Positions 10,590 to 63,703 of a stretch of DNA of 64,000 nucleotides are shown piece by piece (positions within the stretch are counted from its first letter, which is position 1; each line of letters begins with the position of its first letter). The notes under the pieces were generated by a model that did not search any database, was not told the DNA's origin, and saw only the letters and a list, made by a program, of their open reading frames with translations. The position numbers and the translations under genes are program-made. Source of the stretch: an uncultured Gammaproteobacteria bacterium. Its GTDB lineage: Bacteria; Patescibacteriota; Microgenomatia; Daviesbacterales; UBA10151. The stretch covers positions 7,020-71,019 of the forward strand of contig CAZJNI010000005.1 in the NCBI GenBank assembly GCA_964547465.1, written 5' to 3'.

Positions 10590-11480
10590 TCACTTGTCTC
10601 TTTCTACCAAATAATCTACCATCTCTTCCAGTAATTTCCTCATTTTCTCATCCTTGGTTATCTTAGGAATGACCTTTTTAGCCTCAAGTGTATATTTTAG
10701 CGCTTTTGATTTTGCCTGATCTGCAGATACTGCTTCCCTATCTAAAATATCATCTTGTATCTGAAAAGCCACCCCTGCATTCTCCCCAAATACCCCTAAT
10801 TCCCTAACTACCCTCTCATCTGCTCCTCCTAAAATTGCTCCTATTTGAAGCGGACCGGCAATTGTATATTTCGCTGTTTTGTTAATGTTAATAAATTTAA
10901 TATCCTTCTCACTTTCCCCTTTACCCTTTACCCTTTCCCCTAATTCCACATCCAAAACCTGTCCCCAACCGGTATTTATGATTATTTGGGAAAGATGGTT
11001 TAGAGCTTTTATCTTTATATCTCCCAAAAAGTTAGATTCTGTAATTATTTTTATCGGCAAGTACAAGCTGATATCACCTATATTGATTGCTTGTGAAACC
11101 CCGTAATGATCCCCAGCAACACGCCCGTCCTTCGGACGTGACAAAGCCTGATATAGAGATGGTTGCCCTCTTCTTGTCAGGCTTTTATCCATAATATCAT
11201 CATGAATTAAAAGACCGGCATGTAATATCTCAAAAGCTGCACCAATCCACACTACGTCATTGCGAGGTCCGCCTTGGCGGACCGTGGCAATCTCATATCC
11301 AAGCTTTACCAGTACTCCTCTAATTCTTTTCCCACCTTTGCAGGAATTTATCAGACCTAGCGCAAACGGTATCAGTTTAGTATTAGTGTTTTTTACATCA
11401 TTTAGAAATTGAGAAAGTATTTTCTCCAACTCCTGGTCAACTTGACGGGCACCTTTTTCCAAATATTTCTTAAAATCCAT
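10590..11480 (-). CDS. Trans-polyprenyl diphosphate synthase of the FPP/GGPP synthase family.
   Basis: Contains the DDIMD and IQDDILD aspartate-rich motifs. It also carries a CTTTCCC heptamer repeat and a half MITE copy. Confidence 0.88.
   Translation of the reverse strand: MDFKKYLEKGARQVDQELEKILSQFLNDVKNTNTKLIPFALGLINSCKGGKRIRGVLVKLGYEIATVRQGGPRNDVVWIGAAFEILHAGLLIHDDIMDKSLTRRGQPSLYQALSRPKDGRVAGDHYGVSQAINIGDISLYLPIKIITESNFLGDIKIKALNHLSQIIINTGWGQVLDVELGERVKGKGESEKDIKFININKTAKYTIAGPLQIGAILGGADERVVRELGVFGENAGVAFQIQDDILDREAVSADQAKSKALKYTLEAKKVIPKITKDEKMRKLLEEMVDYLVERDK
10912..10939. repeat. Heptamer tandem repeat (CTTTCCC/CTTTACC) x4 inside the prenyl synthase gene, encoding GKGKGES.
   Basis: Period-7 repeat, in frame. 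Confidence 0.8.
11256..11294. mobile_element. Partial (left-half) copy of the GTCATTGCGAG-hairpin-GTGGCAATC element inside the prenyl synthase coding sequence.
   Basis: gtcattgcgaggtccgccttggcggaccgtggcaatctc. Confidence 0.6.
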
Positions 11481-11514
11481 ATATCTTGGACGATTCTATC
11501 ATATTCTGGTAGAA

Positions 11515-12678
11515 TTGGGGCTCAAAATGAAAAACAATATTAGCCTGCGTGATTTTACCTCTGCTAAAAAAAGACGCGAGGCCTTAGAAAAAAAATTAAA
11601 TGTTAAGCTAGAAAATATTAGTAATTTTTCTTTTATAGAAGAACAAGTTTCTGGTAGGAATATAGAAAACCTAATTGGAGCAACCCAAATCCCTTTGGGC
11701 GTTGCCGGTCCATTACAAGTTAAAAGTTCAAAGTTAAAAGTTAAAAGTTATTTTATTCCTTTAGCCACCACAGAAGGGGCATTAGTTGCTTCCATTTCCA
11801 GAGGCTGCAAAGCTGTAACAGAGGCGGGCGGAGTAAAAGTTTTTGTTGAAGACGTAGGACAGACGCGCGGGCCGGTTTTTAAAACCGAAGGCATTGAACA
11901 TAGCATGAAAGTTAAAAAATGGATTAATACCCATATCTCCCAACTCTCCCTAGTCACCCAAAAAACCTCAACCCACCTGAAACTGCTAAATTTAAAAACT
12001 TCTTTAGTTGGCAAAAATCTTTTTGTCAGATTTTCCTATTCCACTCAAGATGCCATGGGCATGAATATGGCAACAATTGCCACAGAGGCAGCAGTAAAAC
12101 TGATTGAGAAAAAAACAAAAGCAGAATGTATTGCTCTTGCCGGAAATTATGACATAGATAAAAAGGCTGCCTGGTTAAATTTTATAAAAGGACGGGGTAA
12201 AAAAGTCTGGGCAGAAGCCACATTATCAAAAAAAATTGTCAAAGAAGTTTTAAAAACAACTCCCCAAAATTTTGTAGAAGTAGTAAAAAGAAAAACTCAT
12301 TTAGGTTCAATAATGAGCGGCTCTTTGGGTTTTAACTCCCATTTTTCCAATATTATTGCGGCAATTTTTGCTGCCACCGGACAGGATTTAGCTCATGTTG
12401 TAGAAGGATCTTTAGGAGTAACTGATGCAGAAATAGAAAAAAATGGTGATCTCTATTTTTCAATTTATTTGCCATCACTTCAGGTTGGAACTATTGGCGG
12501 CGGGACACATCTTCCAACCCAAAAAGAGGCCTTGGAAATTATGAAAGTTTCCAGTGTGCTAGAATATTCCCGGGTTGTGGGTGCAGCTGTCTTGGCTGGC
12601 GAGCTCTCTTTGATAGCCAGTCTAACTGAGGGATCACTAGCCAAAGCCCATCAAAAATTAGGAAGGAAAGGAAAATGA
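11515..12678 (+). CDS. hmgA: HMG-CoA reductase (class I-like, NADPH). An alternative start lies at 11527.
   Basis: Contains ATTEGALVAS, DAMGMNM and GTIGGGT. Confidence 0.9.
   Translation: MGLKMKNNISLRDFTSAKKRREALEKKLNVKLENISNFSFIEEQVSGRNIENLIGATQIPLGVAGPLQVKSSKLKVKSYFIPLATTEGALVASISRGCKAVTEAGGVKVFVEDVGQTRGPVFKTEGIEHSMKVKKWINTHISQLSLVTQKTSTHLKLLNLKTSLVGKNLFVRFSYSTQDAMGMNMATIATEAAVKLIEKKTKAECIALAGNYDIDKKAAWLNFIKGRGKKVWAEATLSKKIVKEVLKTTPQNFVEVVKRKTHLGSIMSGSLGFNSHFSNIIAAIFAATGQDLAHVVEGSLGVTDAEIEKNGDLYFSIYLPSLQVGTIGGGTHLPTQKEALEIMKVSSVLEYSRVVGAAVLAGELSLIASLTEGSLAKAHQKLGRKGK
11718..11752. repeat. Heptamer tandem repeat (AAGTTAA) x5 inside hmgA, encoding KLKVKS.
   Basis: Period-7 repeat. Confidence 0.8.
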
Positions 12679-62263: not shown

Positions 62264-62617
62264 CTAAATAGACTTTTTAATCATTGTTGAAAACATCCTT
62301 ATAAATTCAGTTGATTCCCCAATTAACGGGTCTATAGTTCCTTTGAGGCCCTGGTTATTGTGTAATATAAGCTCTAACCAATACCTGGTTTCTTTTGCTT
62401 CTTTTCTACATATCCTAATTCTCATATAAAAGTCTTTCTTGCCTAGAGCTTCATTTGCTTCTCTATAGTTTGCACCAACAGATCCTGCAGATCTTACAAT
62501 TTGGCTGATCAATTCAAAATTTACAGAGTTTTTAGGAAGTATTTTCACTAAATCAATGATCCTTTTTGAGAAGTTTAATGTTCTATCTTCAAGATCAAAT
62601 TTGCGATCATTGGTCAT
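62264..62617 (-). CDS. Four-helix-bundle protein (23S rRNA intervening-sequence protein family, TIGR02436).
   Basis: GANYREANEA motif. Confidence 0.7.
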   Translation of the reverse strand: MTNDRKFDLEDRTLNFSKRIIDLVKILPKNSVNFELISQIVRSAGSVGANYREANEALGKKDFYMRIRICRKEAKETRYWLELILHNNQGLKGTIDPLIGESTEFIRMFSTMIKKSI

Positions 62618-62671
62618 TTATGTTTATTATTTGGTTTTTACTTTGGTACTTGGTTTTTGGATACTTGGTAC

Positions 62672-63703
62672 TTATGGATTACTGAAGTAATCCATCTTCA
62701 TTGCCTTTTTAACCTCTTCTAATGTTTTCTGGGCTTCTGCACGGGCTTTTACAGTTCCTTCTTTTAAGATCTTTTCCACCAGTTCTGGCTGATTTTCAAA
62801 TTCAGCACGTTTTTTTCTGATAGGTTCCAGGAAATTATTTAAAACTTTTACCAGATACTTTTTTACCTCAATATCACCTACTTGGCCTTTTGTATAAGAT
62901 AACTTATAACTTATAACTTGTGACTTGTCAGCATCAGAGCCAAATGCATCTAAATAAATAAACACAGGATTTCCTTCAACTGTTCCAGGATCAGTTGCAT
63001 GTATTCTATTAGGATCTGTATACATACTCATGACCTTTTTTTCTACTTCTTCCGGAGAATCTGAAAGATTTATCACATTCCCAGCTGATTTACTCATTTT
63101 GGCTTTACCATCTGTACCTGGTAAAGTACCTAGATCTTGGGGAACCAGAGCTTCTGGAACAGGTAAAGTTTTACCATATATTTTGTTAAATTCCCTGGCT
63201 ATTTCTCTGGTTACTTCAATATGGGAAACCTGATCTTTACCAACTGGCACAAGATGTGCCCTGGGCATTAAAATATCTGCAGCCTGAAGTACTGGATAAC
63301 CTAATAAACCATAAGATGGAGTTTGAATTTGGGCATCTCTCATCACATCTTTTAAAGTAGGAACGCGTTCCAGTCTGGGAGTAGTCACCAGATTTGCAAA
63401 AATTACAGCTAATTCCCCTACTTCTGGAATTTGGGATTGAACATAAATAGTAGATTTTTCCGGATCAATTCCCACAGATAAATAATCCAATACCATCTGA
63501 TAGATATTTTCTTTAAGATCTGCTGTTTTTTCCGGTCTGGTGGTTAAAGTGTGCAAATCAGCAATAATAAAAAAGCACTCGTACTCATCCTGCAGCCTCA
63601 CGCGGTTGCGCAGGCTACCTATATAGTGCCCTAAATGCAACTTCCCTGTTGGCCTATCCCCTGTTAGTATGCGTTTCATGCTTTTATTATACCTCCCTTT
63701 CAT
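62672..63703 (-). CDS. trpS: Tryptophan--tRNA ligase.
   Basis: HIGH region TGDRPTGKLHLGH and KMSKS. Confidence 0.92.
   Translation of the reverse strand: MKGRYNKSMKRILTGDRPTGKLHLGHYIGSLRNRVRLQDEYECFFIIADLHTLTTRPEKTADLKENIYQMVLDYLSVGIDPEKSTIYVQSQIPEVGELAVIFANLVTTPRLERVPTLKDVMRDAQIQTPSYGLLGYPVLQAADILMPRAHLVPVGKDQVSHIEVTREIAREFNKIYGKTLPVPEALVPQDLGTLPGTDGKAKMSKSAGNVINLSDSPEEVEKKVMSMYTDPNRIHATDPGTVEGNPVFIYLDAFGSDADKSQVISYKLSYTKGQVGDIEVKKYLVKVLNNFLEPIRKKRAEFENQPELVEKILKEGTVKARAEAQKTLEEVKKAMKMDYFSNP
62899..62926. repeat. Heptamer tandem repeat (ATAACTT) x3 plus GTGACTT inside trpS.
   Basis: Period-7 repeat. Confidence 0.85.

Follow-up and report, generated by a model that had tools for sequence, protein, structure and literature searches.

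Mostly same-length heptanucleotide arrays within housekeeping genes of the Candidatus Daviesbacteria lineage, and a candidate conversion process behind them

Heptanucleotide repeats are the most abundant class of long simple sequence repeats (LSSRs) in many prokaryotes according to the survey of Mrazek et al. (2007) as it is cited in PMC4679880 and PMC4692102, and its authors proposed as the cause that seven nucleotides (nt) is the length of the DNA stretch held by the polymerase. In the account that these two papers give of the survey, long simple sequence repeats within coding regions have units in multiples of three, and the over-representation of heptanucleotides, known since 2007 without a tested cause, was thought to avoid coding sequence. 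Here we describe arrays of direct 7-nt tandem repeats in a 64,000-nt stretch of bacterial DNA (the window: positions 7,020 to 71,019 of contig CAZJNI010000005.1), where they lie in frame within genes such as those for DNA ligase, PolA, TrpRS, CarB and HMG-CoA reductase. These arrays are a coding-centred form of the known, hitherto unexplained heptanucleotide over-representation of prokaryotes, and what is new here is their location in housekeeping genes.

Arrays were called with a detector that, for a given period, accepts at least three units and tolerates isolated mismatches, and Tandem Repeats Finder (TRF) was run alongside; all coordinates are window positions, and for arrays in minus-strand genes the sense-strand unit is given. 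At period 7 the window contained 13 arrays, against 0.125 (Markov-1) or 0.05 (Markov-3) expected from random sequences preserving its di- or tetranucleotide content, and none of the periods from 8 to 15 yielded more than one. The arrays thus have the features of LSSRs, namely head-to-tail units of 5-11 nt and a length beyond that predicted by genome composition. An earlier, sequence-only reading of this DNA had named a series of such repeats and expected their density to exceed that of randomised controls; TRF listed every one of them, at or within a few bases of its assigned place, the excess held in the window, and an intergenic array that it had put at about 40020-40125 was found as a pair (40019-40046 and 40067-40109). 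With the exception of this pair at about 40.0-40.1 kb, all arrays are read through in frame within long intact open reading frames (ORFs). Pfam identified as hosts a polyprenyl synthase, HMG-CoA reductase, thiolase, a DUF3105 protein, ATP-dependent DNA ligase, GlpX, a GT4 glycosyltransferase, PolA, TrpRS and a PyrC-type amidohydrolase, and full-length tblastn matches identified CarB, in agreement with the in-frame location and gene names of that reading. The host genes are intact and the arrays are positioned mid-protein in the ligase, PolA, TrpRS, CarA/B, GlpX, HMG-CoA reductase and a RecF-like protein. Their orientation follows the gene, two arrays lying in plus-strand genes (HMG-CoA reductase and thiolase) and ten in minus-strand genes; the remaining 7-nt arrays located below, the intergenic pair included, are likewise on the minus strand. 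The lag-7 autocorrelation was gone after the arrays had been masked, and therefore the arrays are discrete objects; a weak genome-wide 7-nt periodicity was considered and rejected on the same ground. Scans of the window with Rfam and for tRNAs gave no match.

The nearest relatives of the window's CarB, at 67-82% amino-acid identity, belong to metagenome-assembled genomes named Candidatus Daviesbacteria (Microgenomates, Candidate Phyla Radiation (CPR)/Patescibacteria); the window itself is from a genome of this lineage, that of an uncultured groundwater bacterium. The same detector reported 100 period-7 arrays in 565 kb of Daviesbacteria loci versus 4 in 916 kb of other CarB loci, which came from the same CarB search, and over all loci, duplicates removed, 133 arrays in 871 kb of Daviesbacteria versus 5 in 1.60 Mb of other genomes. 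In the 565 kb the neighbouring periods were rare, with 18 arrays at period 6, 4 at period 8 and 6 at period 9. The trait belongs to the lineage and is no assembly accident of one genome, because arrays occur at orthologous positions, in intact ORFs, in many independent assemblies. Individual loci had between 0 and 4.9 arrays per 10 kb, a heterogeneity of marginal significance (chi-square p = 0.045). In contrast to the LSSR habit of keeping non-triplet units mainly outside coding regions, 106 of the 133 arrays lie within ORFs, a density of 1.3 per 10 kb, and the other 27 lie between genes, at 4.7 per 10 kb; at a coding fraction of 0.934 the intergenic density is 3.6-fold the coding density, though about 80% of arrays lie within genes. 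A search of the genome collection and a metagenome scan, which did supply further loci, returned no same-species relatives that would have allowed a polymorphism test, the best matches being short contigs at 86-88% amino-acid identity, and within the protein collection the window's ligase protein occurred in a single contig only. In the literature we found no description of such arrays for Daviesbacteria, the CPR or Patescibacteria.

The sequence-only reading had taken the arrays for inserts. We aligned the window proteins to orthologues from related loci and, for the 97 coding arrays with at least three orthologues, found a median length difference of 0 in 53, of +0.5 to +3 amino acids (aa) in 18, of at least +4 aa in 14 and a negative value in 12, which shows the arrays to be mostly rewrites of an orthologous segment and not inserts. 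At constrained sites the length was invariant in up to 30 orthologues and the unit sequence was species-specific. One such rewrite is seen in the ATP-dependent DNA ligase, where the array of AAAAGTG/CAAAGTG units at 25558-25591 (aa 526-537) exactly rewrites, over 33 nt, the conserved HKRADKIKVDH: the window encodes IKVKSEKFKVQSKPARV against IHKRADKIKVDHKPARV in most species, with no gap, and in the DNA the place of CATAAAAGAGCAGATAAAATTAAAGTTGATCAT is taken by exactly 33 nt, with the native AAAGTTG kept in register as the apparent seed. This array state is present in about 14 of 116 homologues, the others keep the conserved motif, and the length is constant throughout. On a neighbour-joining tree built with the array sites masked, the array-bearing species are scattered among species of ancestral state, the sister pairs being the window with locus L070, L006 with L013 and L012 with L008, which suggests at least five independent conversions, or recombination. 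Two further arrays lie in the same protein, a degenerate array of AAGAATC at 25961-25984 (aa 395-403), where the length is as in orthologues, and one of AAGATTT at 26842-26873 (aa 99-109), a hypervariable site occupied in other species by different heptamers or by inserts of palindromic elements. In an AlphaFold2 model of the window ligase (mean pLDDT, the predicted local distance difference test, 78.6) the aa-99 array is a coil that links two helices, the aa-395 array is part of a helix, and the aa-526 array forms a helix end and the next loop. With two of the three overlapping predicted helices (pLDDT about 71-90), arrays are not confined to disordered linkers, and the notion that they sit only in disordered loops was not upheld.

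Constant or nearly constant length was also seen in other hosts. The 5.1 copies of AAGTTAC at 20354-20390 in the DUF3105 protein (ORF 20051-20680) correspond to an orthologue segment of similar length, the degenerate AAGGGTR array at 39398-39427 in the RecF-like protein (ORF 38844-39998) matches its orthologues in length, and the ACCCTAT/ACCCTAA array of the PyrC-like amidohydrolase (36801-36826) aligns without gaps. In GlpX a perfect array of 4.6 AAAGGGG copies at 43621-43652 (about aa 300) replaces the KGVEEKGGG-HQ of relatives with a gain of 1 aa. Beyond the ligase model, mapping onto structures, as the earlier reading had recommended for its supposed inserts, covered two more proteins: the perfect AAGTTAT array of TrpRS (62899-62919, 3.0 copies) aligns without gaps to a solved TrpRS, and the 5 copies of AACTACC/AACTACA in the 5'-nuclease domain of PolA (55119-55153) lie in a segment 5 aa longer than that of Taq polymerase. 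The GT4 glycosyltransferase carries an AACTACC/AACTACA array at 48177-48206 and a second, degenerate one called by TRF at 48349-48378. That reading had also considered that the repeats might be conserved ancestral linkers, of which one half stands, since the positions are orthologous and some lie in predicted helices, and the other does not, since the sequence is rewritten and not conserved.

To separate the DNA pattern from the encoded peptides, the codons of 52 window ORFs were shuffled synonymously with proteins and codon usage kept, which left a mean of 0.215 arrays (maximum 2) versus 10 observed; therefore, the periodicity is not a by-product of the peptides. When each of the 106 coding arrays was perfected to its own consensus, 34 gained one in-frame stop, and in 32 of these 34 a deviation falls exactly in the would-be stop codon, often as the sole deviation, as in the ligase aa-99 array. 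In HMG-CoA reductase (ORF 11515-12678, plus strand), the 5.4 AAGTTAA copies at 11713-11750 include a lone variant unit, AAGTTCA, that occupies the would-be in-frame TAA, and in the thiolase (ORF 13816-14967, plus strand) the 4.1 AACGATT copies at 13912-13940 deviate only in the would-be stop codon. Since the deviations sit on would-be stops, the homogenising process takes no account of coding, and it is selection that keeps single bases from being converted; a perfect array made in one step would be lethal, which argues that arrays are built or maintained stepwise rather than in one event. At one same-length site the units of different species are AATGGAC, AATTCAG, AATGGAG, AACTAGG and AATTACA, each with conserved bases as its anchor, and conserved native bases remain in register at the ligase site (AAAGTT) and at the SNEELRID site (GAATT/AATG). 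Unit identity within species was 0.874 and 0.812, as opposed to 0.765 and 0.683 for the same position between species, and at each of the three sites tested 0 of 2000 permutations reached the observed concert. The arrays undergo concerted evolution at constant length.

Array length is bimodal: background matches fade by about 20 nt, a second mode lies at 30-32 nt, and the distribution ends abruptly at 35 nt but for a single array of 39 nt; the usual form is four full units plus 4 bases, and arrays have at most about five units. Read on the sense strand, 74 arrays have A-rich units and 11 have T-rich ones. Among the 19 units that are free of stops in either orientation, A exceeds T in 17 and T exceeds A in none, and therefore stop avoidance alone is insufficient to account for the strand bias; it would be accounted for by selection favouring hydrophilic peptides or by a process tied to transcription. 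The units fall into more than ten families, the commonest of which, containing AAGT, makes up 25 of 106, and the AACTT core that the earlier reading saw in several units (AAGTT on the sense strand) is real. After rotation the units share AA-N-N-K-T-C (3.24 bits versus 2.54 +/- 0.08 in within-unit shuffles), and AGT is present in 42 of 106 units versus 16 expected, a count that includes orthologous sites. CarB has two arrays, a perfect one of 4.6 AAGTTCC copies at 32312-32343 (about aa 541, a hypervariable site) and a degenerate CAGCTAT/CAGTCGT array at 32535-32569 (about aa 466) that encodes SYQSSAISYQTI and whose unit family is found at the same site in other species.

Our confidence is high in the description given so far, namely that the arrays originate at the DNA level, occur throughout the lineage, evolve in concert at fixed length and bear the marks of selection. 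As its best explanation we propose a lineage-specific heptanucleotide conversion process that works in a 7-nt register and whose products are filtered by selection; in this we place slightly more belief than doubt. Homogenising in this register would turn short stretches, typically of 30-33 nt, into tandem copies of a locally seeded unit and would keep the copies alike at a fixed total length. A misalignment mechanism for this step, which we advance tentatively and at somewhat less than even chances, would have the strands pair one unit out of register during replication or repair; a few bases would be copied or corrected from the adjacent unit, and the strands would regain their original register. 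The outcome would be templated conversion between adjacent units with no gain or loss of a unit, letting arrays creep from a seed into its flanks and leaving single selected bases unconverted. Within genes the surviving arrays would be those whose length stays in frame, whose would-be stops are patched by one variant base and whose sense strands encode tolerable, mostly hydrophilic peptides from A-rich units (such as KVQSSKF, KGERGKG and NYKLPTT); outside genes arrays would be denser and often form inverted pairs, giving periodic hairpins at gene ends. That such length-preserving conversion is a property of a replication or repair enzyme, or a dedicated activity, which time and again replaces about 33 nt of coding sequence, conserved motifs and helices of essential enzymes among them, and holds the copies identical, is possible and no better than doubtful. 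If it is true, the heptanucleotide bias of prokaryotes would be the visible trace of a distinct mutational mechanism, which the frame constraint on coding arrays would make directly analysable for the first time.

Several observations weigh against this conversion process. The length ceiling near 35 nt is also present in intergenic arrays, and therefore frameshift load is not its sole cause; the ceiling is not predicted by a simple slippage or conversion model. The unit families AAGT, AAT[TG]N and CAG[TC][CT] recur at unrelated sites and in unrelated species, and Daviesbacteria units resemble heptamers of other phyla; such recurrence is not predicted by seeding from local sequence alone. The 14 of 97 arrays that exceed their orthologues by at least 4 aa are true insertions, as are the inverted array pairs inside CarA and CarB of some species, which add 8-11 aa, and the scatter of the ligase arrays on a rough neighbour-joining tree could equally reflect recombination. 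Finally, the degenerate array of CarA at 34615-34654 (about aa 145) lies at a hot spot where nearly every Daviesbacteria species has a different heptamer-coded peptide. There, loci L006 and L086, 97.4% identical overall, carry (AAGTYAA)4 versus (ACAGGNA)3 between locally divergent flanks, and L007 and L009, about 90% identical, carry a CAGTCGT-type array versus (AGTTCAA)4 at the same point. Unit swaps between genomes this similar look more like replacement or import than stepwise conversion, and the turnover may reflect fast conversion, re-seeding or imported DNA.

The 3.6-fold higher density between genes would suit functional cis-elements whose periodicity selection maintains, within genes too, either as periodic sites for an oligomeric DNA- or RNA-binding protein or as structural motifs such as G-quadruplexes and terminator hairpins. 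Many intergenic arrays are inverted pairs predicted to form periodic hairpins of 5-bp helices and 2x2 internal loops, and in at least six species such a hairpin lies directly 3' of carB (L001, 6278-6353; L007, 13311-13388; L010, 13252-13304; L012, 14053-14124; L022, 14359-14422; L023, 10436-10506), with arm 1 CAGTCNT, arm 2 AGCTGAN, an identical 2x2 mismatch each 7 nt and fold energies of -25 to -39 kcal/mol, that of L023 being -38.6 kcal/mol (z = -7.6). The (AAAGGGG)4.6 array likewise matches the G-quadruplex motif as commonly defined (at least four tracts of at least three G), which only AAAGGGG arrays fit, namely that of GlpX, the 4.3 copies at 10912-10941 in the polyprenyl synthase (ORF 10590-11480; encoding GERVKGKGES) and a few in relatives, most units being without G-tracts. 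The narrow preferred size of four to five units would also suit a binding site, as the Xanthomonas GGGAATC repeat likewise prefers four (PMC4692102). Against selected elements of this kind stand the more than ten diverse unit families, the lack of conservation of array presence at orthologous sites, and within-array variation that is greatest where different arrays agree best, contrary to what a core-plus-spacer design would show. This variation pattern arises because of stop avoidance, and a TRAP-like core-plus-spacer binding site was rejected, the shared TCAA junction being explained by avoidance of TAA and TGA. In the window's own intergenic pair (40019-40046 and 40067-40109), where on the gene strand (AAAAGTT)n is followed by (CACTTTK)n, the A-rich arm provides the stop codon of a major facilitator superfamily (MFS) transporter gene, and the predicted hairpin is no better than that of shuffled sequence (z = -0.75), on which ground a terminator hairpin was rejected there. 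On balance we regard cis-elements as an unlikely source of the arrays.

Ordinary slippage-prone microsatellites of the contingency or phase-variation type, arising by unit insertion and expansion, changing copy number frequently and either switching the gene or being tolerated, are improbable, even though a 7-nt unit does shift the frame, a sharp upper length would be expected if longer arrays slip too often, the CarA and CarB sites differ in length between species, and phase-variable heptanucleotide repeats are reported in Haemophilus and in E. coli neuO. The hosts here are mid-regions of essential single-copy enzymes (ligase, PolA, TrpRS, CarB) and not surface or restriction-modification genes, the arrays are short in intact ORFs, length at constrained sites is fixed in up to 30 orthologues despite differing units, and 53 of the 97 arrays show zero net length change. 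In near-identical assemblies all eight comparable arrays were unchanged, a weak test, as several pairs may come from one metagenome. The sequence-only reading had viewed the repeats as mutational hot spots of slippage held in check by selection; its selection half is borne out by the stop-codon deviations and the length ceiling, and its copy-number half finds no support here, length being constant at constrained sites and the units changing in concert.

The recurrence of the same unit families at unrelated loci and in unrelated species, and the wholesale unit replacement seen between genomes of 90-97% identity at the CarA hot spot, would be expected of small mobile or imported cassettes, that is, pre-formed arrays or inverted pairs of the miniature inverted-repeat transposable element (MITE) or REPIN type, brought into tolerant sites by insertion or gene conversion; inverted pairs adding 8-11 aa inside CarA and CarB of some species, and the in-frame palindromic elements present in these genomes, point the same way. 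Set against this, most arrays add no length, conserved native bases stay in register at the ligase and SNEELRID sites, the units are species- and site-specific, and inserted DNA of about 32 nt would break the reading frame. Palindromic mobile elements of the Rickettsia palindromic element (RPE) or MITE-like type differ from the arrays, which are direct tandem repeats. Terminal inverted repeats were not evident in the listed array sequences, nor were obvious target-site duplications in arrays and flanks, on passing inspection and with no systematic search. We consider imported cassettes about as improbable as slippage. Selection for the peptides themselves, as heptad-like linkers such as KVQSSKF with the DNA periodicity as a by-product, would draw on the 7-residue period that a 7-nt period produces, the predicted helices and the hydrophilic character of the peptides, but is very improbable and largely refuted by the loss of arrays on codon shuffling (0.215 versus 10), by the same arrays between genes and by the use of stop-containing units that are then patched.

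Beside the 7-nt arrays, the 9-nt repeats with which the earlier reading had linked them are also real: the pattern GAAATYRGG/GAAATYGGG has 8 matches versus 0.83 expected, and the peptides REIGEIREIG, GEIGEIREIG, GEFGEVGEIR and GEIGEIKEIG occur in three ORFs, with a GDWGDW variant in a fourth. A unit divisible by three is found in these EIG/EIR repeats only and not in the 7-nt arrays. They lie on the minus strand at 18950-18991 (ORF 18729-19259; REIGEIREIG, length as in orthologues), at 22970-23003 and 23221-23261 (ORF 22868-23500; the former tract is an insertion relative to most orthologues), and at 23859-23888 as calculated from the peptide position (ORF 23493-24866; GEIGEIKEIG).

The window also holds palindromic MITE-like elements with termini GTCATTGCGAG...CTCGCAATGAC (15 half-sites versus 0.7 expected), at 13726-13801, 15377-15463, 24075-24146, 26266-26377, 39135-39221, 42149-42224 and 43454-43554, with a half-site at 11256. 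Five copies are in frame (in a mevalonate kinase, ORF 23493-24866, the DNA ligase, the RecF-like protein and Fpg) and two are intergenic; the family encodes peptides such as ...IATGPSDPRNDK, and the ligase copy, aa 259-304, has a pLDDT of 22-27 in the model. Related elements (SHPERSEGS..., ...SGQARMTV) occupy the same hypervariable sites in orthologues. The polymerase domain of PolA contains at 53501-53577 (about aa 646-672) an in-frame palindromic insert with termini TCTGTCATCCC...GGAATGACAGA that encodes GIYTNKESHGSRIKSGMTEGC and is not present in Taq polymerase; RIKSGMT-type peptides recur in ligase orthologues. PolA (53314-55515) has 733 aa, and its alignment with Taq polymerase passes from residue 288 to 313 while Taq passes from 283 to 432, and therefore the 3'-5' exonuclease (proofreading-like) domain is essentially missing, a feature that could bear on a repair polymerase prone to misalignment.

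Some Daviesbacteria ligases (homologues P0014, P0076, P0098 and P0107) reach 921-939 aa with intein or homing-endonuclease domains (PF14528, PF14890). Elsewhere in the window, 6-, 18- and 30-nt repeats (CCAACT..., TGGAGG...) at 3931-4019, 4623-4724, 6453-6555 and 8045-8152 code for tracts rich in Pro/Thr or in Gly in three large proteins; a type IV pilin N-terminal methylation motif is present in two of these. A mevalonate-pathway cluster extends over 10590-18732 (polyprenyl synthase, HMG-CoA reductase, thiolase, a GHMP kinase and, on a weak match, a possible HMG-CoA synthase), and the pyrimidine synthesis genes carA, carB and a pyrC-like gene follow further along. The 18-nt gap between carA and carB is spanned at 33956-33999 by 4.9 copies of the 9-nt palindromic tandem repeat TAACTTAAG, which overlaps both gene ends.

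For arrays inside essential genes the reading frame acts as a built-in control. It reveals substitution in concert at constant length, the repeated overwriting of conserved segments and the patching of stop-creating bases only, and with coding arrays the mutational drive can thereby be told apart from selection better than with intergenic ones. Many of the 'inserts' and low-complexity loops of CPR proteins may be products of the DNA level, and they should be masked in alignments, phylogenies and structure predictions of these genomes.

Among known repeat systems, the DNA uptake sequences of Pasteurellaceae and Neisseriaceae accrue in genes by molecular drive with gene length unchanged, favour tolerant protein segments and form inverted pairs in terminators. 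They consist of one fixed motif on both strands, whereas the Daviesbacteria arrays share a periodicity only, with differing units and an orientation that follows transcription. Cyanobacteria reportedly have heptamers of their own, the short tandemly repeated repetitive (STRR) sequences said to have been described by Mazel et al. in 1990. The TAACTGA repeats of Beggiatoaceae, cyanobacteria and some Bacteroidetes (PMC4679880) resemble the arrays as 7-nt tandem repeats of 2-6 copies; their reverse orientation is translatable (LSVISYQ), and the CarB units CAGCTAT/CAGTCGT, which encode SYQSSAISYQTI, differ in one or two bases from the reverse complement of TAACTGA (TCAGTTA). That system has a single favoured unit, lies mostly upstream of start codons and, where inside ORFs, is found mostly in hypothetical proteins (PMC4679880), whereas Daviesbacteria have many units, in housekeeping enzymes, and show no dominance of one (or three) fixed heptamers as in the TAACTGA and STRR systems. 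Contingency loci (Haemophilus, Neisseria, Campylobacter, Mycoplasma) also place non-triplet units inside reading frames, but with copy-number variation, usually many units, surface or restriction-modification genes and sites near N-termini (PMC3315296), none of which is seen in Daviesbacteria arrays with their fixed lengths, intact ORFs, housekeeping hosts and mid-protein sites. The amino-acid tandem repeats of Borgs (PMC9879509) are similar in rapid evolution, independent origins and the rewriting or extension of proteins in one lineage; their genic units have lengths in multiples of three and give rise to disordered regions as they expand, which only the 9-nt EIG repeats match here. Three viral contigs from IMG/VR of 52-63% GC (L161, L162 and L181), fetched by the pattern (AAAGTTC)n, each carry 6-8 different heptamer arrays over 10-14 kb, with units of the CAGTGAT/CACTGCT type in some of them, and those of L161 reach 90 nt; therefore, heptamer-rich genomes without the ceiling of about 35 nt exist elsewhere. 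The GGGAATC/GGGGAYT repeats of Xanthomonas and Nostoc (PMC4692102) are alike in unit length, in a preference for about four units, in inverted pairs, in their place at gene ends and in a sequence and length that vary between relatives; unlike them, the Daviesbacteria arrays have many A-rich units and are mainly genic, and only the AAAGGGG arrays are similar. As far as the survey of LSSRs is represented in the papers that cite it, it did not include the CPR or Daviesbacteria lineage, and its heptanucleotide repeats agree with the present arrays in an excess in particular lineages that neighbouring periods do not share, in a scattered distribution and in a proposed polymerase-related cause; the Daviesbacteria arrays differ from them in their setting, about 80% being genic and mostly rewrites of unchanged length, and in an upper limit of about 35 nt.

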